Positions 1-43,798 of a DNA stretch of 64,000 nucleotides are shown one piece after another. The DNA lies in the NCBI GenBank assembly GCA_963762115.1, contig CAVXJH010000006.1, positions 352,001 through 416,000 of the forward strand. The letters run 5' to 3'. The stretch is from Candidatus Babeliales bacterium. Lineage in GTDB: Bacteria > Babelota > Babeliae > Babelales > JANWKD01. The position numbers and the translations under genes were made by a program. How positions within the stretch are numbered: position 1 is the stretch's first letter; each line of letters begins with the position of its first letter. The notes under the pieces are model-generated. The model did not search any database. It had not been told where the DNA came from and worked only from the letters and a program-made list of their open reading frames with translations.

Positions 1-1
1 T

Positions 2-121
2 GTTTGCGGTTATGCGCCAAAGGAACGGAGTAGTTTGTTAAGGCATTTGAAACATGCTAAACATCGCCGTGTTCCGAAAAATCCGGCATCTATTAATTTT
101 AAATTAGGGGAAATTATATGA
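2..121 (+). CDS. 3' end of a C2H2 zinc-finger array paralog (truncated by window edge)
   Basis: Frame from base 2 reads VCGYAPKERSSLLRHLKHAKHRRVPKNPASINFKLGEII*, matching the C-termini of downstream paralogs; its TGA overlaps the next ATG (ATGA 118-121). Confidence 0.9.
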   Translation, partial: VCGYAPKERSSLLRHLKHAKHRRVPKNPASINFKLGEII

Positions 122-969
122 AAAAAATAGTTATTATATTAGCATTTATTTTTGTTGGCATGGTTAATGCTATGGAACAACGGTCATTATTAGATGGTAA
201 TGAAGTTCATAAATATGCACATAGTGATGAAGAAATTGCTTATCAAAAAGAGATACAGGATTTATATCATTGTATTCAACAACGAGAATCACGTACTCAA
301 AAAGAAATTCAATCAGAAGGTCCTACTCGCGGACCAGGTATTGAACAAATATTTTCTTTTCTTGCGCCAGTGCAGAATCATAATGTTTCTCACGCAAAGC
401 CATTAATTCGTGATTTTTGTTCAGTAGAAAATACTGAAGGGCAACAGGATCGAGCGACTGCTGATCGCCGAGAAAAAGAATTAGAAAAGCTGCAGTCCAT
501 TTTTTTCTGGCAAATAAAAGATCTTAGAAAAAGAACATGTGAAGAAGCCGCTTCATCTGATGAAAAAAATAGAGGCCTCCCTGAGGAACCTGTTGCAAGT
601 AAACGAGCTGCAAATAAAAGTTCAACATCGTCAGAAGATAAGGAAATATGCGGTATTAATGGTTGTCAATATCAAACAGCTTTTAGTTGTGAAATGGATG
701 TTCATAAAAAAGGCCCACATGAGTTGACAGTATGCCCTTATCCCGGTTGTAGTGCTCCTCCTTATCTGTTTTATAGCGATTTTTTGCAACATGTTAAGGA
801 TGCTCATCCAGAAATACGTTGTGATGTTTGTCATTATGCGCCAAAGGGACAGAATGCGAAAAAGAGTCAGCAAAGGAATGATTTATTAAGGCATTTTCAA
901 AGTATTAAACATCGCAAGAATCTGGCATTTATTAATTCTAAGGAAGGACAAATCGTATGGAAAAAATAG
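118..969 (+). CDS. Secreted triple C2H2 zinc-finger protein (array member)
   Basis: Signal peptide MKKIVIILAFIFVGMVNA|ME; basic LRKRT...SKR; fingers CGINGC..H..H, CPYPGC..H..H, CDVC..H..H. Confidence 0.88.
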   Translation: MKKIVIILAFIFVGMVNAMEQRSLLDGNEVHKYAHSDEEIAYQKEIQDLYHCIQQRESRTQKEIQSEGPTRGPGIEQIFSFLAPVQNHNVSHAKPLIRDFCSVENTEGQQDRATADRREKELEKLQSIFFWQIKDLRKRTCEEAASSDEKNRGLPEEPVASKRAANKSSTSSEDKEICGINGCQYQTAFSCEMDVHKKGPHELTVCPYPGCSAPPYLFYSDFLQHVKDAHPEIRCDVCHYAPKGQNAKKSQQRNDLLRHFQSIKHRKNLAFINSKEGQIVWKK

Positions 970-1889
970 TTATTATATTAGCATGTATTTTTGTTGGCAT
1001 GGCTAATGCTATGCAATCATCATTATTAGATAGTAAAGATATGCGTCAATATGTACATAATGATCCTGAAAAAATTGCTTATCTAAAAGATATAGAAGAT
1101 TTATATAAATGTATTCAACAAGAAGATGTTCAATCAGAAAGCCGCATTGGTGGACCAGGTATTGAACAACTATTTTCTTTTCTTGCGCCAGCGCAAAACC
1201 ATGAACAAGATTTAGTTAATATTTTTGGATTAAATGCTGTTAATAAAATTGATCATAGCCAGAAGTCACCTGCAGGAGATCCTTATTTGACTGGACATGA
1301 AAATGCTAAAAAAAAGAAAGTTCCTGCGTCATTAATTTTTGGTTTGTTGCAAGAAGCTTCCGTAGGAAATGTTGAAGAACAGCAAGGTCGAGCGATTGCT
1401 GATCGCCAAGAAAAAGAATTGGAGAGTATGCAATTCAATTTTTTGTGGCAACCAGAAGAGAAAGGTAAATCAAGAAAAAGAACATTAGAAGAAGCCGCTT
1501 CATCTGATGAAAAAAATAGAGGCCTCTCTAAAGAACCTGTTGTATCAAATACAAGCAAAAAGGTTGCAAGAAAAAGATCAAAGGTATCAGAAAATATGGA
1601 GATATGCGGTATTAATGGTTGTAGCTTTAGTACAGTATTGAGTGAGTGTATGAGGTGTCATAAAAAAACACCGCATGAACAAAAACAATGCCCTTATCCT
1701 GGTTGTGCTTTTCACCATCAATCCAGAGCTGAGTTATTACAACATATTAAGGGGTGCCATCCAGAAAAATCTTGTATTGTTTGCGGTTATACGCCAAAGA
1801 AACGGAGTAATTTATTAACGCATTTTCGACGCGTTAAACATCGTTACACTTTGAAGGATCCTGCATCTATTAATTTTAAATTAGGATAA
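957..1889 (+). CDS. Secreted triple C2H2 zinc-finger protein (array member)
   Basis: Signal peptide ending ANA|MQ; SRKRT...KKVARKRSK; three C-terminal C2H2 motifs. Confidence 0.88.
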   Translation: MEKIVIILACIFVGMANAMQSSLLDSKDMRQYVHNDPEKIAYLKDIEDLYKCIQQEDVQSESRIGGPGIEQLFSFLAPAQNHEQDLVNIFGLNAVNKIDHSQKSPAGDPYLTGHENAKKKKVPASLIFGLLQEASVGNVEEQQGRAIADRQEKELESMQFNFLWQPEEKGKSRKRTLEEAASSDEKNRGLSKEPVVSNTSKKVARKRSKVSENMEICGINGCSFSTVLSECMRCHKKTPHEQKQCPYPGCAFHHQSRAELLQHIKGCHPEKSCIVCGYTPKKRSNLLTHFRRVKHRYTLKDPASINFKLG

Positions 1890-1894
1890 ATCGC

Positions 1895-2656
1895 ATGAAA
1901 AAAATATTTATTGTATTAGCATTTATTTTTGTTGGCATGGCTAATGCTATGCAATGGTCATTATTAGATGGTAATAAAGTTCGTCAATATGTACATACTG
2001 ATCCTAAAGAAATTGCTTATCTAAAAGGTATACAAGATTTATATAAGTGTATTCAACAGCGAGAATCACGTACTCAAGGAGCAGTTCAATCAGAAGGTCC
2101 TACTCGTGGACCAGGTATTGAACAAATATTTTATTTTCTCAAGCCAGTACAGAATCATAATGCAGAACCATTTGAGAGAAATTCTTATTTGACTGAACAT
2201 GAAAATGATAAAAACGAGGAAAGTAACCCCAGAAAAAGAACATTTGAAGAAGCCGTTGCATCTGATGAAAAACATAGGGATCTCTCTAATGAACCTGTTG
2301 TATCAAATACAAGCAAAAAGGTTGCAAGAAAAAGATCAATGTTATCAAAAAAGATATGCGGTATTAATGGTTGTAGCTATAGTTCAGTAGATTGCATGAA
2401 GCGTCATCAAAAAACACTGCATGAGCAAAAACAATGTCCTTATCCTGGTTGTGCTTTTCATCATCAATCCCAAGGTGAGTTGCTTCAGCATATTAAGAGG
2501 TCTCATCTAGAAAAATCTTGTCCTGTTTGCGGTTATGCGCCAAAGGGACAGATTAATTTACGGAGTAATTTATTAAGGCATTTGCAAAATGCTAAACATC
2601 GCCATGTTCCGAAAAATCCGGCATCTACTAATTTGGGGAAAGGAAAAATCGCATGA
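1895..2656 (+). CDS. Secreted triple C2H2 zinc-finger protein (array member)
   Basis: Same architecture; PRKRT...KKVARKRS; three fingers. Confidence 0.88.
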   Translation: MKKIFIVLAFIFVGMANAMQWSLLDGNKVRQYVHTDPKEIAYLKGIQDLYKCIQQRESRTQGAVQSEGPTRGPGIEQIFYFLKPVQNHNAEPFERNSYLTEHENDKNEESNPRKRTFEEAVASDEKHRDLSNEPVVSNTSKKVARKRSMLSKKICGINGCSYSSVDCMKRHQKTLHEQKQCPYPGCAFHHQSQGELLQHIKRSHLEKSCPVCGYAPKGQINLRSNLLRHLQNAKHRHVPKNPASTNLGKGKIA

Positions 2657-3594
2657 AAAAGATATTTATTGTATTAGCATTTATTTTTGTTGGCATGGCT
2701 AATGCTATGCAATCATCATTATTAGATGGTAGTGGAGTTCGTCACTATGTATATAATGATCCTGAAGAAATTGCTTATCTAAACGATATAGAAGATTTAT
2801 ATAAACGTATTCAACAAGAAGATGTTCAATCGTGTACTCAAGAAGCAGTTCAATCAAAAGGCTGCACTGAAGGACCAAGGATTGAAGAAATATTTTCTTT
2901 TCTCGCGCCAGTGCAAAACCATGAACAAGATTTAGTTAATATCTTTGGATTAAATGCTGTTAATAAAATTGATCATAGCCAGAAGTCATCTGCAGGAAAT
3001 CCTTATTTGACTGGACATGAAAAAAATGAAGTTTCTGTGCCATTAATTCTTGGTTTTTTGCAAGAAGCTTCAGTAGAAAATGATGAAGAACAACAAGGTC
3101 GAGCGATTGCTGATCGCCAAGAAAAAGAATTGGAGAGTATGCAATTCAGTTTTTTGTGGCAACCAGAAGAGAAAAGTAAATCAAGAAAAAGAACATTAGA
3201 AGAAGCCGCTTCATCTGATGAAAAAAATAGAGACAAGGAACCTGTTGTATCAAATACAAGCAAAAAGGTTGCAAGAAAAAGTTCAACGTCATCAAAAAAT
3301 ATGGAGATATGCGGTATTAATGGTTGCCAGTATCATGCAACGGTGAGTAGGCATATGAAGGATCATAAACAAACAGAGCATGAGCAAAAACAATGTCCTT
3401 ATCCTGGTTGTACTTTTCACCTTCAATCCAGAGGAGAGTTGTTGCAACATATTAAGGAGAACCATTCAGAAAAATGTTGTAATGTTTGTGGTTATTCGCC
3501 AAGGGAACGGGGTGATTTATTAAAACATTTGCAACGCGCTAAACATGGCTCTGTTTCGAAGAATCCGGCATTTATTAATTTTAAATTAGGATAA
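2653..3594 (+). CDS. Secreted triple C2H2 zinc-finger protein (array member)
   Basis: Same architecture; ATGA overlap with previous gene. Confidence 0.88.
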   Translation: MKKIFIVLAFIFVGMANAMQSSLLDGSGVRHYVYNDPEEIAYLNDIEDLYKRIQQEDVQSCTQEAVQSKGCTEGPRIEEIFSFLAPVQNHEQDLVNIFGLNAVNKIDHSQKSSAGNPYLTGHEKNEVSVPLILGFLQEASVENDEEQQGRAIADRQEKELESMQFSFLWQPEEKSKSRKRTLEEAASSDEKNRDKEPVVSNTSKKVARKSSTSSKNMEICGINGCQYHATVSRHMKDHKQTEHEQKQCPYPGCTFHLQSRGELLQHIKENHSEKCCNVCGYSPRERGDLLKHLQRAKHGSVSKNPAFINFKLG

Positions 3595-3599
3595 ATCGC

Positions 3600-4601
3600 A
3601 TGAAAAAGATGTTTATTATATTAGCATGTATTTTTGTTGGCATGGCTAATGCTATGGAGTTGCCATTATTCGATGATAATGATGTACATACTGATCCTGA
3701 AGAAATTGCTTATCTAAAAGATATAGAAGATTTATATAAAGGTATTCAACAAGAAGATGTTCAATTAGAAAGCCGCACTGGTGAATTAGACATTGAACAA
3801 CTATTTTCTTTTCTTAATCCTGTTTTTCCTGACTATATTCAACAAGAAGATGTTCAATCACGTACTCAAGAGGAACGTACGAGCGGACCAAGTATTGAAC
3901 AAATCAAGCCAGCGCAGAATCATACTATAGAACCATTTGAGAGAAATCTTTATTTGACTGAACATGAAAATGATGAAAAGAAGGAAGTTTCTGCAGCGTC
4001 ATTAATTTTTGATTTTTTGCAAAAATCTTCAGTAAAAAAAGAAGAAAAGCGACAAAATAGAGCGATTGTTGATCGCCAAGAACAACAAGATCGAGCGATT
4101 GCTGATCGCCAAGAAAAAGAATTGGAGAGTATGCAATTCAGTTTTTTGTGGCAACCAGAAGAGGAAAGTAACCCCAGAAAAAGAACATTAGAAGAAGCCG
4201 CTTCATCTGATGAAAAAAATAGAGGCTCTTCTAAAGAACCTGTTGTATTAAATACAAGCAAAAAGGTTGCAAGAAAAAGTTCAACGTCATCAAAAAATAT
4301 GAAGATATGCGGTATTAATGGTTGCCAGTATCATGCAACGGTGAGTAGGCATATGAAGGATCATAAAGAAACACCGCATGAGCAAAAGCAATGTCCTTAT
4401 CCTGGTTGTGCTTTTTACCATCAGTCCCAAGGTGAGTTGTTTCAGCATATTAAGAAGTCTCATCCAGAAAAATCTTGTCCTGATTGCGGTTATGCGCCAA
4501 ATCTACGGAGTAATTTATTAAGGCATTTGCAACAGGTTAAACATCGCCGTGTTCCGAAAAATCCGGCATCTATTAATTTTAAATTAGGGGAAATCATATG
4601 A
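3600..4601 (+). CDS. Secreted triple C2H2 zinc-finger protein (array member)
   Basis: Same architecture, with internal duplications (IQQEDVQ twice, RAIxDRQE twice). Confidence 0.88.
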   Translation: MKKMFIILACIFVGMANAMELPLFDDNDVHTDPEEIAYLKDIEDLYKGIQQEDVQLESRTGELDIEQLFSFLNPVFPDYIQQEDVQSRTQEERTSGPSIEQIKPAQNHTIEPFERNLYLTEHENDEKKEVSAASLIFDFLQKSSVKKEEKRQNRAIVDRQEQQDRAIADRQEKELESMQFSFLWQPEEESNPRKRTLEEAASSDEKNRGSSKEPVVLNTSKKVARKSSTSSKNMKICGINGCQYHATVSRHMKDHKETPHEQKQCPYPGCAFYHQSQGELFQHIKKSHPEKSCPDCGYAPNLRSNLLRHLQQVKHRRVPKNPASINFKLGEII

Positions 4602-5392
4602 AAAAAATAGTTATTATATTAGCATTTATTTTTGTTGGCATGGCCAGTGCTATGCAACAACGGTCATTATTAGATGGTAATGATATGCGTAAATATGTAC
4701 ATACTGATCCTGAAGAAATTGCTTATCTAAAAGGTATAGAAGATTTATATAAACGTATTCAGCAACGAAAATCGCATACTCAACAAGCAGTTCAATCAGA
4801 AGGCCCTACTGGTGGGCCCGATCTTGAACAAATATTTTCTTTTCTTAAGCCAGTGCAGAATCATAATGTTTCTCACGCAAAGCCATTAATTTTTGGTTTT
4901 TTACAAGAAGTTTCCGTAGGGAATGTTGAAGAACATCGAGAAGAGTTCAATGAGGAAAGTAATCCCAAAAAAAGAACATTAGAAGAAGCCGCTTCATCTG
5001 ATGAAAGAAATAAAGATTTTCCTGAGGAATCTATTGTCTCAAAGGTAAGCAAAAAGGTTGCAAGAAAAAGCTTAACGGTATCAAAAAATATGGAGATATG
5101 CGGTATTAATGGTTGTAGCGTTAGTACAGCATTGAGTAATGCCATGAAGCGTCATAAAGAAACACTGCATGAGCAAAAGCCATGTCCTTATCCTGGTTGT
5201 GCTTTTCACCATCAATCCAAAGGTGAGTTGCGTGAGCATATTAAGAGGTCTCATCCAGAAAAATTTTGTCCTGTTTGTGGTTATACGCCAAAGGAACGGG
5301 GTAATTTATTAAAACATTTGCAACATGCTAAACATCGCCCTGCTTCGAAGAATCCGGCATCTATTAATTTGGGGAAGGGAAAAATCGCATGA
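4598..5392 (+). CDS. Secreted triple C2H2 zinc-finger protein (array member)
   Basis: Same architecture; N-terminal ~95 aa nearly identical to the next gene. Confidence 0.88.
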   Translation: MKKIVIILAFIFVGMASAMQQRSLLDGNDMRKYVHTDPEEIAYLKGIEDLYKRIQQRKSHTQQAVQSEGPTGGPDLEQIFSFLKPVQNHNVSHAKPLIFGFLQEVSVGNVEEHREEFNEESNPKKRTLEEAASSDERNKDFPEESIVSKVSKKVARKSLTVSKNMEICGINGCSVSTALSNAMKRHKETLHEQKPCPYPGCAFHHQSKGELREHIKRSHPEKFCPVCGYTPKERGNLLKHLQHAKHRPASKNPASINLGKGKIA

Positions 5393-6222
5393 AAAAAATA
5401 TTTATTGTATTGGCATTTATTTTTGTTGGCATGGCCAGTGCTATGCAACAACGGTCATTATTAGATGGTAATGATATGCGTAAATATGTACATACTGATC
5501 CTGAAGAAATTGCTTATCTAAAAGGTATAGAAGATTTATATAAACGTATTCAGCAACGAAAATCGCATACTCAACAAGCAGTTCAATCAGAAGGCCCTAC
5601 TGGTGGGCCCAATCTTGAACAAATATTTTCTTTTCTTAAGCCAGTGCAGAATCATAATGTTTCTCACGCAAAGCCATTAATTCTTGGTTTTTGTTCAGTA
5701 GGAAATGCTGATGAACAACAAGATCGAGCGATTGCTATTCATCAGCAAGAAAAACCAGAGAAAATGCAGTTAAGTTTTTTGTTACAACCAGAAGAAAAAA
5801 GTAACCCCAAAAAAAGAACATTTGAAGAAGCTGCTTCATCTGATGAAAAAAAGAGAGATCTCTTTAATGAATCTGTTGTATCAGATGTTGATAACGTTGC
5901 AAGCCAAGGCCCAATATTGTCAGAAAATAGGGAGATATGCGGTATTAATAGCTGTAAATTCCATGCAGATAAGCGTGGAATTATGAGTATTCATAAAAAA
6001 AGACGGCATACGCAAAAACAATGTTATTGGCCTGGTTGTGCTCTTCTCTGTCAATCCAGAGGTGAGTTATTACAACATATTAATAGATGCCATCTAGAAA
6101 AACATTGTATTGTTTGTGGTTATGCGTCAGAGAAGCGGGGTGATTTATTAAGGCATTTTCGACGCGCTAAACATGGCTACATTTTGAAGGATCCCCCATT
6201 TATTAATTTTAAATTAGGATAA
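5389..6222 (+). CDS. Secreted triple C2H2 zinc-finger protein (array member)
   Basis: Same architecture; fingers CGINSC, CYWPGC, CIVC. Confidence 0.88.
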   Translation: MKKIFIVLAFIFVGMASAMQQRSLLDGNDMRKYVHTDPEEIAYLKGIEDLYKRIQQRKSHTQQAVQSEGPTGGPNLEQIFSFLKPVQNHNVSHAKPLILGFCSVGNADEQQDRAIAIHQQEKPEKMQLSFLLQPEEKSNPKKRTFEEAASSDEKKRDLFNESVVSDVDNVASQGPILSENREICGINSCKFHADKRGIMSIHKKRRHTQKQCYWPGCALLCQSRGELLQHINRCHLEKHCIVCGYASEKRGDLLRHFRRAKHGYILKDPPFINFKLG

Positions 6223-6227
6223 ATCGT

Positions 6228-7046
6228 ATGAAAAAAATATTTATTGTATTGGCATTTATTTTTGTTGGCATGGCTAATGCTATGCAATTACGGTTATTAG
6301 ATGGTAATGAAGTTCGTCAATATGTACATACTGATCCTGAAGAAATTGCTTATCTAAAAAGTATACAAGATATTCAACAAGAAGATGTTCAATCGCGTAT
6401 TGAACAAGAAATTAAATCAAAAGGACGCACTGCTGGACCAGGTATTGAACAAATATTTTCTTTTCTCGTGCCAGTGCAGAATCATAATGATTCTCATATA
6501 AAACCACTAATTCTTGGTTTTTTGCAAAAAGCTTTCGTAGAAAATGTTGAAGAACATCGAGAAGAATGCAATGAAAAAAGTATATCCAAAAAAAGAACAT
6601 TTGAAGAAGCTGCTTTATCTGATGAAAGAAATAAAGATGTTCCTGAGGAATCTGTTGTCTCAAATGTAAGCAAAAAAGCTGCAAGAAAAAGCTCAACATC
6701 AAAAAATATGGATATATGCGGTATTAATGGTTGTCAGTATCGTGCAGCTAAGGATGAAACTATGAATATTCATAAAGGAACACTACATGAGCAAAAGCAA
6801 TGTCCTTATCCCGGTTGTACTTTTCATCGTCAATCAAGAGGTGAGTTATCACAACATGTTGATATGTACCATCCAGAAAAATATTGTACTATTTGTGGTT
6901 ATACGCCAAAGAGACGGTGTGATTTATTAAGGCATTTGCAATTTACTGATCATTCAAAAGACCTTTTTTGTAAATACAAATATTGCAAAGAAAAGCTTTT
7001 AAATATTACTGATTTAAGGCAGCATTACGCAAAATATCATAAATAA
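6228..7046 (+). CDS. Secreted four-finger C2H2 zinc-finger protein (array member)
   Basis: Three family fingers plus an extra CKYKYC...LRQHYAKYH finger. Confidence 0.87.
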   Translation: MKKIFIVLAFIFVGMANAMQLRLLDGNEVRQYVHTDPEEIAYLKSIQDIQQEDVQSRIEQEIKSKGRTAGPGIEQIFSFLVPVQNHNDSHIKPLILGFLQKAFVENVEEHREECNEKSISKKRTFEEAALSDERNKDVPEESVVSNVSKKAARKSSTSKNMDICGINGCQYRAAKDETMNIHKGTLHEQKQCPYPGCTFHRQSRGELSQHVDMYHPEKYCTICGYTPKRRCDLLRHLQFTDHSKDLFCKYKYCKEKLLNITDLRQHYAKYHK

Positions 7047-7069
7047 GTTTTAAAATTTAGGATAAATCG

Positions 7070-7960
7070 ATGAAAAAAATATTTATTGTATTGGCATTTA
7101 TTTTTGTTGGCATGGCTAATGCTATGCAATTGCCATTATTAGATGGTAATAAAGTTCGTCAATATGTACATACTGATCCTAAAGAAATTGCTTATCTAAA
7201 AGGCATACAAAATATTCAACAAGAAAATGTTCAATCGTGTACTCAAGAAAAAATTCAAGCGGAAGAACGTACGAGTGGACCAGGCATTGAACAAATATTT
7301 TCTTTTCTCAAGTCAGTGCAGAACCATGATGTTCCTCATATAAAACCATTTGAGAGTGATTCTTATTTGATTGAATATCAAAATGATGAAAAAAAAGAAG
7401 TTTCTGCGCCATTAATTCTTGGTTTTTGTTCAGTAGAAAATGCTGATGAACAACAAGGTCGAGCGACTGTTGATCGCCCAAAAAAAGGATTGGAGGGTAT
7501 GCAGTTCAGCTTTTTGTTGCAACCAAAAGAGAAAAGTAATTCTAAAAAAAGAACATGTGAAGAAGCAGCTTCATCTGATGAAAAAAAGAGCGGTCTCTCT
7601 AAGGAATCTGCTGTATCAAATGCAAGCAAAAGGGCTGCAAATAAAAGTTCAACATCGTCAGAAAAAATGAAGATATGCGGTATGAATGGTTGTAGCTTTA
7701 GTGCAGTATTGCGTGATACCATTAGGCGTCATCAAGAAACACGGCATGAGCAAAAGCAATGCCCTTATCCTGGTTGTGCTTTTCACTATCAATCCAAAGC
7801 TGATTTTTCGCAACATATTGATAATGCCCATCCAGAACTATGTTGTACTATTTGTGGTTATGAGACAAGGAAACGGTCTTGTTTATTACAACATTTTCAA
7901 AGTATTAAACATCGCAAGAATCTGGCATTTATTAATTCTGGGGAAGGACAAATCGTATGA
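7070..7960 (+). CDS. Secreted triple C2H2 zinc-finger protein (array member)
   Basis: Same architecture; C-terminus HFQSIKHRKNLAFINS shared with 118..969. Confidence 0.88.
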   Translation: MKKIFIVLAFIFVGMANAMQLPLLDGNKVRQYVHTDPKEIAYLKGIQNIQQENVQSCTQEKIQAEERTSGPGIEQIFSFLKSVQNHDVPHIKPFESDSYLIEYQNDEKKEVSAPLILGFCSVENADEQQGRATVDRPKKGLEGMQFSFLLQPKEKSNSKKRTCEEAASSDEKKSGLSKESAVSNASKRAANKSSTSSEKMKICGMNGCSFSAVLRDTIRRHQETRHEQKQCPYPGCAFHYQSKADFSQHIDNAHPELCCTICGYETRKRSCLLQHFQSIKHRKNLAFINSGEGQIV

Positions 7961-8538
7961 AAAAAATATTTATTGTATTAGCGTTTATTTTTTGTAGTGT
8001 GTTGTATGGTATGGAAGAATCAACTGAAGACTATGTTGAAAGAAAATTAAGCGAAGCATTTTCTTTGCTTGATAAAACGATGTTGTTATCACGAGATTCA
8101 AACGGAGCTTCAAAGAGTATTGATGATGAGGAGTTATTTTTAACTGAAGCTGATCTAGTTGATGTATTATACCCAAATACTCCAAAACCAAATACTAAAT
8201 CTTCAAGCAGGGGATTAAAAAGAAGCTTCGAAATGATGATTAATAGTGATCATGTAAGAGATCAAGATTTTGATGATCATAAAGATCAAGATATAAAATG
8301 GCAAGGTAAGGATGAAAAAGAGTGTTCTTTGTGTGGTAAAATTATAGCTAATCTTAGGTATAAAAAGTCGCATGAATTGTGGCATAGGAAAACTGTAGAA
8401 AAAAATAAACGATGTGATGCATGTAAATATGCATTTGAGTCTAGGAGTGGTTATTATTCTCATAATAAATCAACTATTCATAATCGCGTAATTTCCTATA
8501 GAGCATTTAAGGTTGAATCTATTTCTTGTGGGAATTAG
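7957..8538 (+). CDS. Secreted C2H2 zinc-finger protein, second subfamily, prematurely terminated
   Basis: Signal peptide ...VLYG|ME; acidic region, GLKRSFE, two fingers (CSLC..H..H, CDAC..H..H); paralog of 8711..9607, stop where the paralog has GAG. Confidence 0.85.
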   Translation: MKKIFIVLAFIFCSVLYGMEESTEDYVERKLSEAFSLLDKTMLLSRDSNGASKSIDDEELFLTEADLVDVLYPNTPKPNTKSSSRGLKRSFEMMINSDHVRDQDFDDHKDQDIKWQGKDEKECSLCGKIIANLRYKKSHELWHRKTVEKNKRCDACKYAFESRSGYYSHNKSTIHNRVISYRAFKVESISCGN

Positions 8539-8705
8539 AGACATTTTGAGATCAGCGGCGCAAATGCAATGCAGCCAATTAAGAGAGTTTTCATGAAGAC
8601 AAAAAATGTCATAATTGCAGTCACGTGTTTTTGAGTCGATCAGCACTCAACCAGCATAAAAGGGATTGTAAGGATCCGGCATTTATTAATTTTAAATTAG
8701 GGTAA
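8539..8705 (+). pseudogene. Decayed 3' tail of 7957..8538 encoding a further finger
   Basis: Aligns to the 3' part of 8711..9607; after a 1-nt deletion and a CAA>TAA change it reads ESFHEDKKCHNCSHVFLSRSALNQHKRDCKDPAFINFKLG*. Confidence 0.8.
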
Positions 8706-8710
8706 ATCGT

Positions 8711-9607
8711 ATGAAAAAAATATTTATTGTATTAGCGTTTATTTTTTGTAGTGTGTTGCGTGGTATGGAAGAACCCCCTGAGGACTATGATAAAAGAAAA
8801 TTAAATGAAGAAATGGCTTTGTTTGATCAAGCGATGTTGTTATTACAAGGCCAAAACGGAGTTTCAAATAATATTGATGATGATGAGTTATTTTTAACTG
8901 AAGCTGATTTAGTTGACGTATTATATCCAAATATTCCGGAGCCGGATACTGAAGCTTCAAGCAGGGGATTAAAAAGAAGCTTCGAAACGATGATTGATAA
9001 TGAACATGAGAAGGGTCAAAATTTTGATAATCATAAAAATCAAATGGTAGAATGGAAGGGTCTCGATAAAAAAGAATGTTCTTTGTGTAGTAAAATTATA
9101 CCTATGCGGAGCTATCAAAAACCGCATGAACTGTGGCATAGGAGGCGAACTAATGTTTCAGAAAGTGATGGACTTAGATGTGATGCATGTAAATATGTAT
9201 TTGGATCTAGGAATGGTTTTAATTCTCATTATAAGTCAGATGTTCATTACGACGTAATTTCCTATAGAGGATCAGAGGTTGGATCTATTTCTCGTGAGAA
9301 TGAGAGTTATTTTGAGATCAGCGATGTAAATGCTGTGCAGGCCAATCAAGAGAGCCTTCATGAAGAAAAAAAATGTCAATTTTGTTCAGCTTCCATTCAA
9401 TCTTTAGATCATTTAAAAAAGCATTTTAAAGATTCTCATGCAAAAGAAAGATCGTGCCCTATCTGTGGTTGGAAAGTGAAACAATTAATGATTTTGGCAA
9501 AACACTTATTTGAAGATAAGCATGAAGAAAAAGAATGTTATAATTGCAGTCAAGTGTTTTTGAGTCGACCAGCACTTAATCAACATAACAAGCATTGTTT
9601 AGAATGA
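8711..9607 (+). CDS. Secreted five-finger C2H2/C2HC zinc-finger protein, second subfamily
   Basis: Signal peptide ...VLRG|ME; five CxxC...H..H/C motifs including FxSRxALNQH-type helix. Confidence 0.88.
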   Translation: MKKIFIVLAFIFCSVLRGMEEPPEDYDKRKLNEEMALFDQAMLLLQGQNGVSNNIDDDELFLTEADLVDVLYPNIPEPDTEASSRGLKRSFETMIDNEHEKGQNFDNHKNQMVEWKGLDKKECSLCSKIIPMRSYQKPHELWHRRRTNVSESDGLRCDACKYVFGSRNGFNSHYKSDVHYDVISYRGSEVGSISRENESYFEISDVNAVQANQESLHEEKKCQFCSASIQSLDHLKKHFKDSHAKERSCPICGWKVKQLMILAKHLFEDKHEEKECYNCSQVFLSRPALNQHNKHCLE

Positions 9608-9757: not shown

Positions 9758-9864
9758 GAAATTTTTATTTGGTGTTGATTAGATTGAGGGATAAAGGGGG
9801 CCTTTTGTCATGGTAATTTTGGTATGATATACTCATATAAAGTTACTCATGTTTGGAGGTCCTT

Positions 9865-11148
9865 ATGTATACTATTCGCGCTCTTGTTTTTACCTTATTT
9901 ATTACTCTTTTTCAAAGTTCTTCTCCTGAAGTTCATGCTTCCCATAGAGTAAAAAAGTTAATACCAACGTTATTGACTTCTTTGCCGAAAAAGAGTCAAA
10001 AAAATAGTTCCGAAGTTACGCTAGAACAATTTAAGCAGGCTATTGTTGAATATGCTCATTGTTCAAAAAAAGAACTATTATTTAACCCATGGTTATGTGA
10101 TAAAAATCCATGCAATGAATCTTTTTTTACGCTAACGATGCCCGCTTCTTTTACGCCATTTGCGCAAAAAGTAGTCGTTCCTAGCGGCAGTAAAGTAGCT
10201 TTTTTCGGGGATTTACATGGTAATATTGATTCAGTAGTGAAAATTTTAACGTTTCTTAAAAAAAATGCCTATCTTGATGACAATCTAAAAATTATCAAAA
10301 AAGATTTTTATATGATGTTTCTTGGTGACTATGTTGATCGTGGGTCTCATGGCGTTGAGGTTATGTACTTGTTATTATCATTAAAAATTGCAAATCCAAA
10401 CAATGTTTTTTTAGTACGTGGTAACCATGAAGATCGCTTATTAAATACTGTTTACGGTTTCAGAAATGAACTTCGTTCAAAATATCCGCTTATGCAGCAT
10501 GATGAAATTGAAAGTGTTTTTCGCTGTTATGATTTTATGCCTACCGTTATTTTCTTGGGTTCTGGTGCTAGCAATGACTTTATTCAATGTTGTCATGGCG
10601 GTATGGAAATTGGCTATTGTGCTAAAGAATTATTAAATATGCCTTATTCGATTGCCTATCAAGCGTTGGGCACTATTTCACGTATTGAATCAGTGCGAGA
10701 GCTTCCTGGTGGGTTGAAACAAGAAGTGCTTAAAAAAATTCCACAAAAAGAGATTGCTAATTTCATGCCAACACAACCGACGCAGCCAGTTACTCTTGGT
10801 TTTATGTGGAACGACTTTATAGAACAATCAGAAAATTATAGTTCTGCGCTTATTGATTATAGTAACGGGCGTGGATGGATTTATGGTAAACAATTAACAG
10901 CACTTTTACTTGCAAAAAATAGTTCAAAAAATGCTCGAATTCGCGCTGTCTTTAGAGCTCATCAACATCATGGTGGCATGCTCAAATTATTACAGCAAGA
11001 AAAAGGTATTGTAAAATTGTGGAATGGTATGGTGCATACTTTTCTAACAGCTTCGTTGCCAAATGTCGATTTTGCACATACCTCATTGGGAATTTTAACA
11101 ACAGCAGATCAGTATCAAAATTGGTCATTGGAACATAGTATTCTTTAA
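9865..11148 (+). CDS. Exported PPP-family Ser/Thr protein phosphatase (metallophosphoesterase)
   Basis: GDLHG, GDYVDRG, RGNHE, HGG, MWNDF, RAHQ motifs; N-terminal signal peptide; GGAGG RBS before ATG 9865. Confidence 0.85.
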   Translation: MYTIRALVFTLFITLFQSSSPEVHASHRVKKLIPTLLTSLPKKSQKNSSEVTLEQFKQAIVEYAHCSKKELLFNPWLCDKNPCNESFFTLTMPASFTPFAQKVVVPSGSKVAFFGDLHGNIDSVVKILTFLKKNAYLDDNLKIIKKDFYMMFLGDYVDRGSHGVEVMYLLLSLKIANPNNVFLVRGNHEDRLLNTVYGFRNELRSKYPLMQHDEIESVFRCYDFMPTVIFLGSGASNDFIQCCHGGMEIGYCAKELLNMPYSIAYQALGTISRIESVRELPGGLKQEVLKKIPQKEIANFMPTQPTQPVTLGFMWNDFIEQSENYSSALIDYSNGRGWIYGKQLTALLLAKNSSKNARIRAVFRAHQHHGGMLKLLQQEKGIVKLWNGMVHTFLTASLPNVDFAHTSLGILTTADQYQNWSLEHSIL

Positions 11149-20009: not shown

Positions 20010-22115
20010 ATGAAATTAAATCTTTGGATTGTATTATTTCTTTGTTCAGGTTCTTTTCTCAATGCGATGGAGCAACAAGAAGAAACAATTCCATTTCAAA
20101 CAATGAATGGAAAAACTTTTTTGGTAAAAAAAGGAGTTGCCAAAAATTTTTGTGCAATTCGATCTTTATTTGAAGATGATAAGGATATTTTTCAGTCATT
20201 AAAAAATCAATCAAGCGAACCAATACCTCTGAGCGAAGTAACACCGCGAGCTTTTGGGGAGATTATTGATTTTTATGAAAATGACCATGTTCCTGGTATG
20301 AATTGTTTCAATAGTCTTCATCAAGAAACATTAATTGAAATTATTAATGCGGCATATTATTTGAATTGTAAATCTGTTTTACAAGTTGCTTGTAGTGCAT
20401 ATGCAAAAAAATATGTTAAAAATGTTGGTAATGGTGAATGGGGGGAAAGGCATAAAAATCTCTTAGTAGATGTCGATCGCATGGTTGCTAACATTATTTT
20501 GAATAAATATACTGCTTTTGACGATTTTTTTAAATCAACACGAAATCTTTCATTAAAGGAAAGTCTTCTGGCTTTTCCACGAAGAAAATTTGTTGTTAAG
20601 AGTGTCAATGCAGAAAGCATTACTCCTCTTGCAATTTCATCTAAAGGTTCTTATCTTTCAGTTGCTGTTGAAGGAAAGCATTCACAATTATTTGATTTAA
20701 AAAACAATGTATTACAAAAACCTTTAAAAAAAAATTCATTAAACAATGCTGAAAGAATGTATGGTAATTTTTCGCCATCATTTCGACAGGTAAGAAGTGA
20801 CTTTAATCTTGCTGCTTTTAGTCCTGATGAATCGTTGTATTGCCAAGTTTACCCTTATGAGACGTTGAGGCAAAAAAGTCCTCAAAGATGTTTGATTGTT
20901 TGGAGAACAACTGATGATGAAGTATTAATGGAGCAAGAAGGTGATTTTATGTTGCCAGGCTTTAGTCCTGATAATAAAATTTTGGCAGCAATTGAGCAAA
21001 GTAATGATGCAGAAGATGAAAATGCAGAAATTTTTATATGGAATTTAAAAAAATTACAAAAACAGCCCATAAAAAAGTTGCCAACTATTAGTAATTATAG
21101 AGTGAAACAAAATTATGCATTTAGCACACAGGGTGAATTGGCCTATCTTAAAGATAAAACAACATTAGCTTTATGGGATCCAAAAACCAATCAAGAAACT
21201 GAAGTTCCTTGTTATGGAAAAAATTGTAAAAGAAAAAATTATCATATTTATTCATTTCATTTTAGCCCGGATGGCTCAAAGTTGGTTTTTTTAGCCGCTG
21301 ATCGTGAATTAAATTATGGACCACAAAAGCAGTATAGTATTGATCCCAATGCTGTGATACAGGTTTATGATCTCAAAAAACAGACGCATAATTATTATCC
21401 TTTTAAGAATGAACGCCCTTTTGATCTTGATTTTTCAGATGATGGTAAATACTTTGTTGTTTCAATACATAATTATGATTCTCCTGTGATGAAATATATC
21501 TTTGATCTTGATTTTTTTCTTGATTTTTTTGGTGATCATCCTTACTTAGTTCATTCAGTATTATGGCCTAAGGGCAAATATGCTTTAAAAAATTATAATG
21601 GGCTTTTGCATTATTTAGAATGGGGTGAAAGAAAAATTGTAAGAGGCAAAGAAAAGATTTCTGATACCAGAGGACCTCATTTTGATGTTAGAGAATTTAT
21701 GTTTTTGGAAGGTGTTCCTTCTTATCATTCAAGTCGCTCCTCTATTCAACTCATTGACAGAAATTTTTTAGTTCTAAAAAAAGCTTGTAAAGGTACAATT
21801 ACTATTTGGGGGCCTTTTTTTGATTCATTTCAATTAAAAGAAGATTTAGAGAAGTTATCATCATTACAGGTTGCTTTTATGAAAACGTTATGGAAGCGTA
21901 AAAAACCTTTGAGTATTAAAAGAAACAAGCTTCCTTCTGGAAAAACAATTCCTTTTGATTCACCATTATGGCGAATATATAAAAGTCTCCCTTATGCTGT
22001 ACGGCAACGTTTATATGGAAAAGTTATAGAAAAAGATGTTAAGGCAATTTTAGTAAGAGGAACATCTTCTGAAACATATGCTGTTAGCGGCTTGAAAAAT
22101 CATTTAATAGAATAA
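20010..22115 (+). CDS. Secreted Skp1/POZ-like + WD40-like beta-propeller protein 1
   Basis: NA|ME signal; GKTFLV..VAK...IRSLFED...IPLSEV...LIEIINAAYYLNCKSVLQVAC resembles Skp1; repeated FSPD..L and IW motifs. Confidence 0.78.
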   Translation: MKLNLWIVLFLCSGSFLNAMEQQEETIPFQTMNGKTFLVKKGVAKNFCAIRSLFEDDKDIFQSLKNQSSEPIPLSEVTPRAFGEIIDFYENDHVPGMNCFNSLHQETLIEIINAAYYLNCKSVLQVACSAYAKKYVKNVGNGEWGERHKNLLVDVDRMVANIILNKYTAFDDFFKSTRNLSLKESLLAFPRRKFVVKSVNAESITPLAISSKGSYLSVAVEGKHSQLFDLKNNVLQKPLKKNSLNNAERMYGNFSPSFRQVRSDFNLAAFSPDESLYCQVYPYETLRQKSPQRCLIVWRTTDDEVLMEQEGDFMLPGFSPDNKILAAIEQSNDAEDENAEIFIWNLKKLQKQPIKKLPTISNYRVKQNYAFSTQGELAYLKDKTTLALWDPKTNQETEVPCYGKNCKRKNYHIYSFHFSPDGSKLVFLAADRELNYGPQKQYSIDPNAVIQVYDLKKQTHNYYPFKNERPFDLDFSDDGKYFVVSIHNYDSPVMKYIFDLDFFLDFFGDHPYLVHSVLWPKGKYALKNYNGLLHYLEWGERKIVRGKEKISDTRGPHFDVREFMFLEGVPSYHSSRSSIQLIDRNFLVLKKACKGTITIWGPFFDSFQLKEDLEKLSSLQVAFMKTLWKRKKPLSIKRNKLPSGKTIPFDSPLWRIYKSLPYAVRQRLYGKVIEKDVKAILVRGTSSETYAVSGLKNHLIE

Positions 22116-22202
22116 TAGTGAAATTTGTTGAAGAAAATATACCAAGGGTTATGTATTTTCAGTGAGTACAAGAAACTTTAAAAACAGGAATGACATTTCG
22201 AT

Positions 22203-22355
22203 ATATTGTCAGTTGTATTTGCTTAATTAGTTCTTTAAATTTTTTATCGAATTTGTAATCTAATATTTTTTGCAACAAGTTGAATAAAGCTTCTCTAAAA
22301 CTATACTAAACAAAGTACATTTTTTTATTTTTACGATGTTTTTTAGGTTTTATCA
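22203..22355 (+). promoter_or_regulatory. Duplicated upstream/promoter region of the Skp1-propeller genes (copies at ~24737-24891 and, partly, ~19918-20009)
   Basis: Near-identical DNA in front of all three genes, containing TTGAAT-16-TATACT. Confidence 0.7.
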
Positions 22356-24509
22356 ATGAAATTAAATCTTTGGATTGTATTATTTCTTTGTTTGGGCTCT
22401 TTTCTTAATGCGATGGAACAACAAGAAGAGACAATTCCATTTGAAACGGGTGATGGAAAAATTTTTTATGTTAAAAAAGAAATTGCTGCTAATTTTAGTG
22501 GCATTCGAGCGCTGATTTCAGGTGATTTTGTGCCATTGCATAACCAAGAAACTCAATCGATACCTTTTAATGAAATTGTAAAAAATAAAGCTTTCAAAAC
22601 TATTGTTGATTTTTATGAAGGTGAAAAAGATATTAATTTTTTTAAAGATTTTCCTCAAAAAAAATTAATTAAGGTGATTAATGCCGCTCATTATCTTGAT
22701 TGTGAAGAAGTTTTGCGAGCAGCATGTAAAATATATACAAAAAAATTGTTCAAATATATAAGTGATGCAAAAGGAATAAAAAGGCACAAAAAGCTTTTGA
22801 TAGATGTTGATCATGATATTACAAATGCAATTTTAAACAAAAAAACTGAGAATTCATTTGCGATTTATGAGTCTTATAAAGTAAAACATAAAACTCAAAA
22901 AGTGTCGCTAAAAGAAAATATACTTACCTTTATACTGCATAAAACGATCGACGTGCAAGATAAGAGTCTCTATTGGAAAGGTCTCTATAATTGTGCAGAA
23001 ACAGGGAATCCTCTTATTATGTCTCCAAAAGGTTCCTATTTAGTACTTTACTTTACGTGTGGGGAGATGCGGCTTTTGGATTTAAGAGCTAATGTATTGA
23101 AAGATCCTTTAATGGTTCAAAATGTAAGATTAAAATTCTGTAAATTTGCTAGGTTTTATGAAAATCGAAATGTAACATTTGATTCTGATGAATCTTTGTA
23201 TTGTGGCATTTATAGTTCTGGAAAAAATAAGCGGGAAAAGTGCCTTGTTGTTTCAAGAACAATAAATAATGAAATCTGCATGAAGCAAGAGGGAGATTTT
23301 GTATTACCAGGCTTTAGCTCAAACAATACTTTTTTAGCTGCTGTTGCATTAAATAAAGAATATGAAATAAAAGCTGCTGAAAATGCACATGTATGTGTAT
23401 GGGATTTATCAACAAGTCTCTTATTAAAAAAGTTACCAACTATATTTAATAAGAAAGTAATACAAAATTATGCATTTAGTTCACAAAATGCATTAGCGTA
23501 TCTTAAAAATAAAACAACATTGGCTGTATGGCATCCATCATCTAATCGAGAAATAGAAGTCCCTAGTTATGGCAATTGTTATAATGATAAAAACAATTAT
23601 CACATTTATGAATTCAGTTTCAGTCAAGATGGTACGAAGCTTATTTTTTTATCGAGTGATCGTGTTTTGGATGTTGGTCCGCAACAACAGTATGTTACAT
23701 TGCCAAAAAGCATTTTGAATATGTACGATATAAAAAACGATAAGCTTTGTTATTATGAATTCGAAAACGAAAAACCATTTGATCTTGGTTTTTCGCAAGA
23801 AGGTAAATATTTTTTTACGAGTGAATCTAGACCGTACTATACTAGTTTACAGATGTGCAATTATGATCGATTCTTAAAGGTTTTTAGCGTGGATAGTTTT
23901 GAAGATACGCCATATGTAGGCCATAGACTTGATAGTTGTAAGAGGCCTTTTCTGGTACATACAGATGCTAAAGATAGATTAGGGCTTTTAGAATGCATGG
24001 GAAGAAAAATTTTTCGAGGTTACGCTAGAAAATATGGTAGCGAGCCGAATTTTGGGATTAATGAATTAGCGTATATAAATAATTTACCAAAAGAATTGTA
24101 TAGAGAAGTAAAGGTTTTTGATGCTAAAGGAAAATTTTTTTTCGTAAACGTTGAATTAGACAAAGAAGATGAATATCATCAAAAAATTAACATATGGGGG
24201 CCTACGATAGACCCATTTCAATTAGAAGAAGATGTGCAGTCATTATCTTCTGAGCATTTGACTTTGGTTCAAGCGTTATTAAAACGAAAAGATCCTTTGT
24301 TAATTGAAAAAATACACCTTCCTTCAGGTAAAAAAATTCCAATGACTTCTCCTGTTATTTCACTATACAAGAGTTTACCCAAAAGTGTTAAAGAACGTTT
24401 ATATGGAAAAGTTATAGAAAAAGATGTTAAGGCAATTTTAGTAAGAGGAACATCCTCTGAAACATATGCTGTTAGCGGCTTGAAAAATAATTTAATAACG
24501 CGAATTTGA
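22356..24509 (+). CDS. Secreted Skp1/POZ-like + WD40-like beta-propeller protein 2
   Basis: DGKIFYV..IA...LIKVINAAHYLDCEEVLRAAC; propeller-type repeats; paralog of protein 1. Confidence 0.78.
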   Translation: MKLNLWIVLFLCLGSFLNAMEQQEETIPFETGDGKIFYVKKEIAANFSGIRALISGDFVPLHNQETQSIPFNEIVKNKAFKTIVDFYEGEKDINFFKDFPQKKLIKVINAAHYLDCEEVLRAACKIYTKKLFKYISDAKGIKRHKKLLIDVDHDITNAILNKKTENSFAIYESYKVKHKTQKVSLKENILTFILHKTIDVQDKSLYWKGLYNCAETGNPLIMSPKGSYLVLYFTCGEMRLLDLRANVLKDPLMVQNVRLKFCKFARFYENRNVTFDSDESLYCGIYSSGKNKREKCLVVSRTINNEICMKQEGDFVLPGFSSNNTFLAAVALNKEYEIKAAENAHVCVWDLSTSLLLKKLPTIFNKKVIQNYAFSSQNALAYLKNKTTLAVWHPSSNREIEVPSYGNCYNDKNNYHIYEFSFSQDGTKLIFLSSDRVLDVGPQQQYVTLPKSILNMYDIKNDKLCYYEFENEKPFDLGFSQEGKYFFTSESRPYYTSLQMCNYDRFLKVFSVDSFEDTPYVGHRLDSCKRPFLVHTDAKDRLGLLECMGRKIFRGYARKYGSEPNFGINELAYINNLPKELYREVKVFDAKGKFFFVNVELDKEDEYHQKINIWGPTIDPFQLEEDVQSLSSEHLTLVQALLKRKDPLLIEKIHLPSGKKIPMTSPVISLYKSLPKSVKERLYGKVIEKDVKAILVRGTSSETYAVSGLKNNLITRI

Positions 24510-24561
24510 TACGTTAAAAATATGAATTTAGCCTAAAGAAAAAAACATAAAAATCAGCGTT

Positions 24562-24727
24562 GTCATTGCGAGCCAACATTGTTGGCGTGGCAACCCAGCA
24601 TATAAAATTCTTTTTATTTTTCCTAATTAATTTTGATTTACTGATTCAATAAGTTTTAATTTTAAGGATTTCATTAATGAGAACATTATAATCTGGATCC
24701 CCACGGCACAATGTGCCTCGGGAAGAC
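24562..24727. repeat. Inverted doublet of REP/RPE-like palindromes
   Basis: GTCATTGCGAG-hairpin-CGTGGCAACCCAG at 24562-24598 and reverse-oriented GTCTTCCCGAG-hairpin-CGTGGGGATCCAG at 24693-24727. Confidence 0.8.
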
Positions 24728-24891
24728 ATTTTGGGTATATTGTTAGTTGTATTTGCTTAATTAGTTCTTTAAATTTTTTATCGAATTTGCGTAATCTAAT
24801 ATTTTTTGCAACAAGTTGAATAAAACTTCTCTAAAACTATACTAAACAAAGTACATTTTTTTATTTTTACGATGTTTTTTAGGTTTTATCA

Positions 24892-42336: not shown

Positions 42337-43798
42337 CTACTCTTTACCCACATTTTTACTATAATTAACGAGATACAGAATTAATATATCAAAAAAAGAA
42401 AAGTAAAAAATGATTAAAGAATTGTGGGCAGCAAATGAAACTAATCGTATGTCATTAAAAGATAAACGCAGAAATGAAAGAGTTAGAATACTTCTAGAGG
42501 CAGTTGCCGATAGCCCATCAGCAAGCATTTTACAAGCTTGCAACGGAGAAAATGCACAAGCAAAAGGTGCTTACCGTTTTCTTGCCACAACAGAAATTGA
42601 TGAACAAGATATTCTCGAAGGACATTATCAAGCAACCGTCGAAAGAGCTGAAAATGCTGATGGAAAAGTCATTATCGTTAGCGATGGCATGGATGCATCT
42701 TTTAAGAATCTTAAAAAAACTGAGGGACTAGGAACTCTCTCTAATTCAAAAACTTCACTTGGAATAAAGGTTCAAAATACCTATGTATTTAGTGAAAATT
42801 TTATTCCATTAGGTTTAATAAATCAAAAATATTGGGTACGTAATAAAGAAGATTATGGCAAAAAAAAACATAGGCTAAGGCTGCCTACAATAGAAAAAGA
42901 ATCTTATAATTGGGTTGAATCAATTTATCAAATAGAAAAAAAGCTTTCCTTAAATAAAAGCTATCTATTTATAGGTGATGGTGGTGCAGATATTTATGAT
43001 TTACTGATAGCAGAAAGGCGTGTAAATAGCGATTTACTCATTCATCTTGTGCAGAACAGAAATATACAGAATGAGAAGGAGCGTCTTTTTGAATTACTGG
43101 AAAAACAATCAGTACTAGGCGTTATAACGAAAGAATTAGAACGTACAAAAACTCATTCTAAGAGAACTGCAAAATTAGCAATTAGAGTCAAAGAAGTTGA
43201 AATTTGTCCTCCTCTTAATCGAAAAGACAAAAAATTATCAACCATAAATTTAACAGCAATTTATGTACAAGAAATAGAAAATGACAAAACAATAAATGAT
43301 CCAATAGTATGGCGACTTATTACTACGATTAAAATTCAATCATTGGAAGAAGCTGAAAAGCTTATTGCTCTTTACTCAAAACGTTGGCTCATTGAACGTT
43401 ATCACTATATTTTAAAAGAAGGTTGTCGAATAGAAAAATTTCAAATGGAATCGGTTGATAATCTAAAAAGAACCTTAGCTGTTTACTCAATTGCTGCTTG
43501 GCGTTTAATTTATATCACTTATCTTGCAAGAATTAAACCTGATGCCCCATGTAATTTAATTCTTACAATCGATGAAGCTGATGCGTTATATTGCACACAT
43601 CATAAAACTCTTACATTGCCCCCCAAATCTTTTTCTGTTAAAGAAGCAACTCAAATGATAGCAAAATTAGGAGGTTTTCTTGGCAGAAAAAATGATAAGG
43701 ATCCTGGTGCAAAAGTTTTGTGGCAGGGACTATTTCGGCTAGAAGCCATCACACAAGCTTATCTTTTATTTAAAGAACTAAATGTGGGTAAAGGGTAG
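42337..43798 (+). mobile_element. IS4-family (IS50/Tn5-like) insertion sequence
   Basis: 19-bp terminal inverted repeats CTACTCTTTACCCACATTT / AAATGTGGGTAAAGGGTAG (1 mismatch); 10-bp target duplication CGCGTATATG at 42327-42336 and 43799-43808. Confidence 0.95.
42410..43798 (+). CDS. IS4-family DDE transposase
   Basis: AYRFL, EKESYNW, YSKRWLIERYHYILK (YREK motif), IAKLGGFLGRKND..PG..VLWQG. Confidence 0.95.
   Translation: MIKELWAANETNRMSLKDKRRNERVRILLEAVADSPSASILQACNGENAQAKGAYRFLATTEIDEQDILEGHYQATVERAENADGKVIIVSDGMDASFKNLKKTEGLGTLSNSKTSLGIKVQNTYVFSENFIPLGLINQKYWVRNKEDYGKKKHRLRLPTIEKESYNWVESIYQIEKKLSLNKSYLFIGDGGADIYDLLIAERRVNSDLLIHLVQNRNIQNEKERLFELLEKQSVLGVITKELERTKTHSKRTAKLAIRVKEVEICPPLNRKDKKLSTINLTAIYVQEIENDKTINDPIVWRLITTIKIQSLEEAEKLIALYSKRWLIERYHYILKEGCRIEKFQMESVDNLKRTLAVYSIAAWRLIYITYLARIKPDAPCNLILTIDEADALYCTHHKTLTLPPKSFSVKEATQMIAKLGGFLGRKNDKDPGAKVLWQGLFRLEAITQAYLLFKELNVGKG

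Follow-up and report, generated by a model that had tools for sequence, protein, structure and literature searches.

A tandem array of signal-bearing C2H2 zinc-finger genes in Babelota: candidate transcription-factor mimics

The array and its genes

In the genome (G000) of a Candidatus Babeliales bacterium (GenBank assembly GCA_963762115.1), 15 tandem genes for Cys2His2 (C2H2) zinc-finger proteins, hereafter the array, lie at positions 348543 to 361607 of contig CAVXJH010000006.1 (C6). The window, that is, the whole stretch of DNA that was analysed, comprises 64,000 nucleotides (C6:352001-416000; window position 1 is C6:352001). Within it the array runs on the + strand, with 11 complete open reading frames (ORFs) at 118-9607 and a twelfth of which 1-121 holds the 3′ end. 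A preliminary description of the window had counted at least 12 such genes running off the left edge; the array proved to be larger, four of its genes beginning left of the window, from C6:348543. The genes are listed below, where KR motif means KR[TS][FLC].

Gene 1, C6:348543-349049: left of the window; no KR motif
Gene 2, C6:349268-350167: left of the window
Gene 3, C6:350164-351156: left of the window
Gene 4, C6:351153-352121 (3′ end at window 1..121), + strand: 322 aa, 3 fingers
Gene 5, 118..969, + strand: 283 aa, signal-like start, RKRTC, 3 fingers, finger 3 with an 8-residue insertion
Gene 6, 957..1889, + strand: 310 aa, RKRTL and KKVARKR clusters, 3 fingers; structure modelled
Gene 7, 1895..2656, + strand: 253 aa, RKRTF and KKVARKR clusters, 3 fingers
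Gene 8, 2653..3594, + strand: 313 aa, 3 fingers
Gene 9, 3600..4601, + strand: 333 aa, 3 fingers, finger 1 DNA 96% identical to finger 1 of gene 8
Gene 10, 4598..5392, + strand: 264 aa, 3 fingers, a 198-bp identical 5′ tract in common with gene 11
Gene 11, 5389..6222, + strand: 277 aa, 3 fingers
Gene 12, 6228..7046, + strand: 272 aa, 4 fingers
Gene 13, 7070..7960, + strand: 296 aa, 3 fingers
Gene 14, 7957..8538, + strand: 193 aa, second subfamily, acidic N-terminal segment, KRSF, 2 fingers
Out-of-frame remainder of gene 14, 8539..8710, + strand: one finger remnant (~8590-8670) and the array's usual gene-end sequence
Gene 15, 8711..9607, + strand: 298 aa, 5 fingers

The proteins follow the plan given in the preliminary description: a signal-like start, a low-complexity middle and C-terminal C2H2 fingers, 2-5 per gene and 46 overall. 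By signal-like start we mean one that passes our own heuristic for a Sec-type signal peptide, which was applied to the array, the genome and the ORFs of relatives. All 15 array proteins pass it, as had been claimed, and each N-terminus is a basic-hydrophobic segment ending in A/G-M-(E/Q/H/N); a lipobox was found in none of the 15. Twelve genes are close paralogs (59-75% identity to gene 6) with three core fingers, gene 12 having a fourth, and many in-frame indels occur among them. Genes 1, 14 and 15 are more distant: gene 14 is a truncated copy of gene 15 (62% identity), and gene 15 joins both finger types, fingers 1-2 being like those of genes 1 and 14 and fingers 3-4 like those of the 12 core genes. 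Eight of the 14 junctions overlap and three are 5 bp apart, and a purine-rich stretch precedes all 15 gene starts; these features suggest that the genes are co-transcribed. A promoter and terminator scan of the array's left end stayed at chance level (24 found versus 22 expected). No RNA run was listed as containing the array, a result that is silent on expression.

An assembly artefact is unlikely, the paralogs differing to the extent given above. In one short-read soil run, which may be the source sample, 12 array pieces were found (11 at ≥99%) touching 13 of 30 bins, with no single piece spanning the array. Eukaryotic contamination was rejected: the array lies on a 586-kb contig between bacterial genes, and the region is syntenic with a congener.

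Fold and divergence of the fingers

The array fingers fit C-x2-4-C-x12-H-x3-5-H, with the 12-residue spacing in most of them and L/M/F at helix position 4, and their Pfam matches lie below the cut-off. Profile comparison of the finger region gave CTCF first (E 4e-9), with GLI, TFIIIA and ZFAT next. In the AlphaFold2 model of the gene 6 protein, the predicted local distance difference test score (pLDDT) is 80-91 in the finger region and below 50 in the remainder; the finger region modelled alone gave a mean pLDDT of 86, a predicted template modelling (TM) score of 0.62, and three small strand-plus-helix units. Nearly all matches that Foldseek listed for this region are C2H2 proteins, none at E ≤ 0.001, and the ESM Atlas gave generic C2H2 clusters only. 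The C2H2 fold of the preliminary description is supported by the models, by the CTCF match and by the zinc ligands, which are invariant across the 12 close paralogs (0 non-synonymous versus 9 synonymous changes in the ligand codons). Purifying selection on the ligands is supported by these counts, and zinc binding by the fingers is probable from the invariance.

The ratio of non-synonymous to synonymous rates (dN/dS) of finger codons was obtained by a parsimony count over the same 12 paralogs, each range spanning tree and kappa choices; recombination between copies and the parsimony counting weaken these figures. For the 69 other finger codons, dN/dS is 1.26-1.68 (p 0.04 to 3e-5). Helix positions −1, 2, 3 and 6 carry 6.1-6.8 replacements per site versus 4.3-4.5 (permutation p 0.006-0.01), an excess that comes from fingers 1 and 3. 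The signal peptide has a dN/dS of 0.34, and the whole-gene pairwise value is 0.86 at a pairwise dS of ~0.27. It was also found that the paralogs are mosaics, in which trees and nearest neighbours shift between regions. In the congener (G001), the same flanking genes enclose a single signal-bearing gene of 163 aa with one finger, whose similarity to array gene 1 is not significant (E 0.029). From these results we conclude that the array is real and selected.

Relatives, localisation motifs and export

The Pfam model PF00096 (zf-C2H2) matches 100 of the 261 genomes of the phylum, 59 of them over the cut-off, and 1 of 14 control genomes. Since this model barely detects G000 itself, the count is a lower bound; the array's own finger profile matches 32 of the 261. 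Loci of relatives were fetched around the best finger matches in 42 genomes. Among the complete ORFs there with at least two fingers, 97 of 109 have a signal-like start, versus 521 of 1244 ORFs in G000 by a similar heuristic; the 97 come from 41 of the 42 genomes and have 2-12 fingers. TGEKP-type linkers occur in 54 of these 97 proteins, and runs of 3-8 multi-finger genes in 12 of the 42 genomes. The position code of the C2H2 recognition helix is established, and among 358 fingers of relatives the entropy peaks at positions 6, 3 and −1; the four contact positions (−1, 2, 3 and 6) vary more than the comparison class in 18 of 19 relatives' genomes. The pairing of signal, KR-type motif and multiple fingers recurs across the Dependentiae, and the signal-bearing multi-finger architecture is widespread in the phylum. 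The N-terminal parts of these proteins look unrelated between genomes (by eye), from which we infer repeated local expansion of finger genes in Babelota.

The full-length profile of the array proteins matched, among 7080 candidates of 139-583 aa, only its own 12 proteins and four others, which sit on other small metagenome contigs. Scans of metagenome and viral contigs gave no close homologs, and a genome-contig scan with a relative's protein returned its own locus only. Elsewhere in G000, at least seven further ORFs carry the C2H2 pattern with 1-7 fingers, six of them signal-like and with N-termini unrelated to the array (sites C3:39310-40503, C3:88130-89011, C3:494526-495296, C6:9389-10279, C6:326447-327659 and C7:102624-103430; two of the genes form a tandem pair). 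In one relative (L086:769-1758), the signal peptide is followed by ankyrin repeats (by eye) fused to an acidic segment and three C2H2 fingers.

The preliminary description had assigned a basic cluster to every gene and had called the proteins bearers of a nuclear localisation signal (NLS). The quoted motifs exist (SRKRTLEE...SKKVARKRSK in 957-1889, GLKRSFE in 7957-8538 and 8711-9607), and the KR motif occurs in 14 of 15 array proteins versus 4 of 91 secreted controls, a pattern drawn from the array, whose copies are kin; gene 1 lacks it. Twelve of the proteins read KR-x-(F/L/C)-x-x-A. This is near the minor-site class of importin-alpha, KRx(W/F/Y)xxAF, in which every motif residue matters and KR is the preferred pair (PMC3946659; general NLS definitions are given in PMC13311002). 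Two genomes of relatives account for the 3 exact matches to this class among 98 proteins, and any strict NLS class occurs in 26 of the 98 versus 39 of 651 controls. Outside the fingers, KR exceeds RK in 27 of 41 genomes and the reverse holds in 0, with 14 ties; within the array the difference is small (27 versus 21). The observed/expected ratio of KR is 4.5 in relatives' finger proteins versus 1.3 in secreted controls, and its rate exceeds that of same-genome secreted controls in 27 of 32 genomes.

Windows rich in acidic and aromatic residues are commonest in relatives (9.0%), with 3.6% in the array and <0.8% in controls, which lends weak support to their acting as activation domains. An eh1-like repressor motif was found in 0 of 15 array proteins. 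In relatives it was found in 4 of 67 finger proteins versus 1 of 582 controls (e.g. L014:659-1881, L053:1375-1992 and L010:1321-2130), where a motif of the MALSFILN or MAISFFVN type, resembling the eh1/Groucho-type repressor motif, sits directly after the signal.

The genome is 1.53 Mb in size and 95% complete, and it carries three ATP/ADP translocase genes, two secretins and two type II/IV ATPases. Its 16S matches a published Babelota primer exactly (PMC12172432). The carrier is thus most likely a host-dependent bacterium of the Babelota (Dependentiae), in keeping with the host association presumed earlier for a producer of nucleomodulins. According to the same source, all cultured Babelota members infect protists. 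For TM6 genomes, a pair of secretins along with translocases has been reported (PMC4776705), type II is given as the only secretion system of Babela (PMC4378268), and for Chromulinavorax 44% signal-bearing proteins and replication in the host cytoplasm are described (PMC6561590). A small residue with M(E/Q/D/K) after it stands at the likely cleavage site in 182 of 521 signal-like versus 45 of 723 other G000 proteins, and likewise in 62 of 97 relatives' finger proteins; a mature N-terminal ME may be a sorting mark.

As for the rest of the window, a signal-bearing calcineurin-like phosphoesterase gene (9853-11148) lies directly 3′ of the array, in the same place as in the congener. Three tandem signal-bearing paralogs of 650-717 aa at 20010-26844, with a BTB/SKP1-type N-terminus and a beta-propeller by eye, look like another effector-like expansion. 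Transposase-like genes are located at 42410-43798 and 52186-52656 (IS4-like and IS200-like by eye), neither adjoining the array, and no Rfam family was found in the 64-kb window.

Interpretation and likeness to known systems

We put at roughly 55% the probability that the array proteins, after export into a protist host, reach the host nucleus, where they work as DNA-binding mimics of transcription factors. In this mechanism, Sec export with cleavage before M(E/Q) at residue 19 would be followed by exit from the cell, either by way of the type II-like secretin system or in vesicles. After zinc loading, importin-alpha would bind KR-T/S-F/L/C-x-x-A together with the downstream basic cluster; fingers 1 and 3, whose recognition helices vary, would bind host DNA, with finger 2 as a conserved spacer. 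The disordered acidic middle would serve activation, repression or competition, and duplication with recombination between copies would renew the specificities.

A series of observations weighs against this reading, and the first of them concern geometry. When superposed on DNA-bound arrays, the modelled three-finger unit fits poorly (TM ~0.3; root-mean-square deviation mostly 9-12 Å), and VIA offers at best weak two-finger packings (Z 4.7, 4.0 and 3.4). Each unit is predicted to be a C2H2 finger, but the modelled arrangement is unlike that of DNA-bound arrays. The linkers are 4 residues long in 21 of the 30 counted in the array, whereas 251 of ~290 in the relatives have 7; the array does not show the Kruppel-type 7-residue TGEKP linker. 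Such short linkers and packed fingers would suit proteins that reach the host nucleus or cytosol and bind RNA or host proteins there, as decoys or adaptors, in place of promoter DNA. The VIA matches, weak as they are, include a Zap1 finger pair, JACKDAW and TFIIIA-RNA; finger 3 and the fingers of genes 1, 14 and 15 end in H-x5-H, and H-x5-H fingers often bind RNA; genes 14 and 15 have sub-threshold Pfam matches to zf-met and zf-C2H2_jaz; and the variation is spread over the finger surface, not confined to the helix. Against RNA or protein binding, finger 3 (R-S/G-N/D-L-L-R/K-H) aligns with CTCF fingers, per-site replacement is highest at the helix positions, and the relatives have the canonical DNA-reading architecture. 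We regard it as a serious rival for the short-linker array, although a rather unlikely one.

The substitution data, too, are in part adverse to DNA reading. The recognition positions of finger 2 are conserved (dN/dS 0.34-0.45; it keeps S-x-G-E-L-x-Q-H), and the recognition class as a whole, at 1.0-1.5, is no higher than other non-ligand finger sites (1.35-1.74). In the region before the fingers dN/dS is ~0.8-1.2, so that relaxed selection explains part of the finger divergence. The relatives' loci, moreover, were selected by best finger matches, and kin are not independent. Alternatively, a single small exported finger gene may have been amplified for the most part neutrally, its duplicates now decaying; this would accord with the whole-gene dN/dS, the truncated gene 14, the many indels and the single gene at the congener's site. 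It is nevertheless very improbable in our judgement: 14 of 15 frames are open despite the pairwise dS, the ligands are invariant and the signal peptide is constrained, and runs of at least three such genes recur in other genomes as counted above.

Nuclear import and activity of the array proteins face the following difficulties. The exact KRx(W/F/Y)xxAF class was found in 0 of 15 proteins and any strict NLS class in 1 of 15, and the second basic cluster, KKVARKR, is intact in just two genes. K(K/R)x(K/R) occurs in 4 of 15 versus 46 of 91 secreted controls, and acidic activation-like windows in just 4 of 15.

The weakest step is delivery. By a similar heuristic, 521 of 1244 G000 ORFs (~42%) look exported, so that a signal peptide does not by itself set the array proteins apart. 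Markers of type III, IV and VI systems (FHIPEP, VirB4, VipB) gave no match in the genome, which leaves delivery unexplained. A VKOR gene suggests an oxidising periplasm, which the cysteine fingers would have to cross; an argument for a reducing periplasm failed, as DsbB was not found in the genome but VKOR is present. The large fraction of export-like proteins and the failure to find an injection system would be in line with the proteins having stayed in the periplasm, at the surface or in the vacuole (zinc buffering, surface variation) or acting on co-infecting bacteria or viruses. The array proteins, however, have no lipobox or membrane anchor, and the KR-order enrichment and base-contact diversification have no obvious envelope use; we consider this outcome unlikely. 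Both it and neutral amplification fit less well.

Transcription-factor mimicry would place the array beside the transcription activator-like (TAL) effectors of Xanthomonas. Those are repeat proteins of bacteria that are delivered to the host, carry an NLS, vary at base-contact residues and come in multi-gene repertoires; in 2017 they were described as the sole effector family whose direct target was known to be DNA (PMC5570926). The array differs in its C2H2 fold, its Sec-type instead of type III signal and its protist host, DNA binding and an activation domain being only proposed here. Helical repeats of 33-35 residues with repeat-variable diresidues, a corresponding Pfam match and FHIPEP were not found. 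RipTAL and Btl are relatives of TAL effectors. The comparison with TAL effectors made in the preliminary description fits the TGEKP-linked relatives better than the array: its 4-residue linkers and the finger packing in its model depart from what DNA-bound three-finger arrays show.

MoHTR1 and MoHTR2 of Magnaporthe oryzae are secreted nuclear effectors suppressing host genes, and MoHTR2 combines a signal peptide, an NLS and a C2H2 domain (PMC12488382). As described there, they are fungal, of ~110 aa and with one C2H2 domain, unlike the bacterial Babelota proteins with 2-12 fingers and tandem arrays. With CTCF, GLI, TFIIIA and KRAB-ZNF proteins the array has in common the finger fold, the 12-residue spacing, the profile match noted above and clusters with variable recognition helices, KRAB-ZNF clusters evolving by birth and death with such helices; it differs in being bacterial genes with signal peptides, 4-residue linkers, no TGEKP and no known effector domain. 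Ros/MucR share bacterial C2H2 zinc coordination (PMC9779718). They are single-finger, cytoplasmic proteins with 9-residue spacing, in contrast to the 2-5 fingers, mostly 12-residue spacing and signal-like start of the array, where the Ros/MucR Pfam model gave no match at E ≤ 1. On this analysis, the array proteins would work like TAL or MoHTR effectors while being members of neither, nor of Ros/MucR.

The earlier assumption that bacterial C2H2 proteins are single-finger Ros/MucR only is wrong, since annotations list multi-finger genes on plasmids of Burkholderia, Salmonella and Cardinium, and such genes are also counted in Endozoicomonadaceae. Kistimonas is enriched in zinc fingers, and PF00096 counts in Endozoicomonadaceae reach 205 (PMC12491435). 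These are TGEKP-type proteins from host-associated lineages, the likeness being known from the fingers; six plasmid finger proteins (by eye) lack a Sec-type start, unlike the Babelota arrays. Plasmid records matching a relative's finger protein numbered 5 of 72,556. On Burkholderia sp. MS455 plasmid NZ_CP041780.1 (L082:15273-29291), four tandem genes of 716-1496 aa with 6-17 fingers have an N-terminal region in common and adjoin a very large gene annotated as cycle-inhibiting factor, and insertion sequences. On a conjugative Salmonella plasmid, a six-finger gene (L084:10025-10807) is flanked by fimbrial genes and type IVB pilus genes, and a Cardinium plasmid carries a three-finger gene (L083:7222-8049) close to an ankyrin gene.

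Searches of the literature, chiefly open-access papers, found no account of exported C2H2 arrays for Babelota, although an earlier mention is possible, and term look-ups in the main texts of Babelota-related genome papers (PMC6561590, PMC4378268, PMC4776705 and PMC12644861) gave no C2H2 family. Bacterial multi-finger C2H2 genes are thus known, and the exported finger arrays of Babelota would be new, as a variant of the idea of transcription-factor-mimic effectors.

More tentatively, and at somewhat less than even odds, Babelota may have made eukaryotic C2H2 fingers into a phylum-wide, Sec-exported repertoire of sequence-specific readers of host genomes, a second bacterial class of programmable DNA-targeting effectors beside the TAL effectors. 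It would have expanded repeatedly in tandem arrays, with recognition helices and importin-type signals evolving by duplication and recombination, and the array described here would represent a branch that has short linkers and binds in a geometry of its own. Direct reading of host DNA is known for very few families of bacterial effectors. If true, the proposal would provide a concrete mechanism for host takeover by Babelota and a naturally occurring collection of bacterial zinc-finger arrays; it would also offer a hypothesis for the multi-finger genes of Endozoicomonadaceae, Cardinium, Burkholderia and Salmonella, which are so far uncharacterised.

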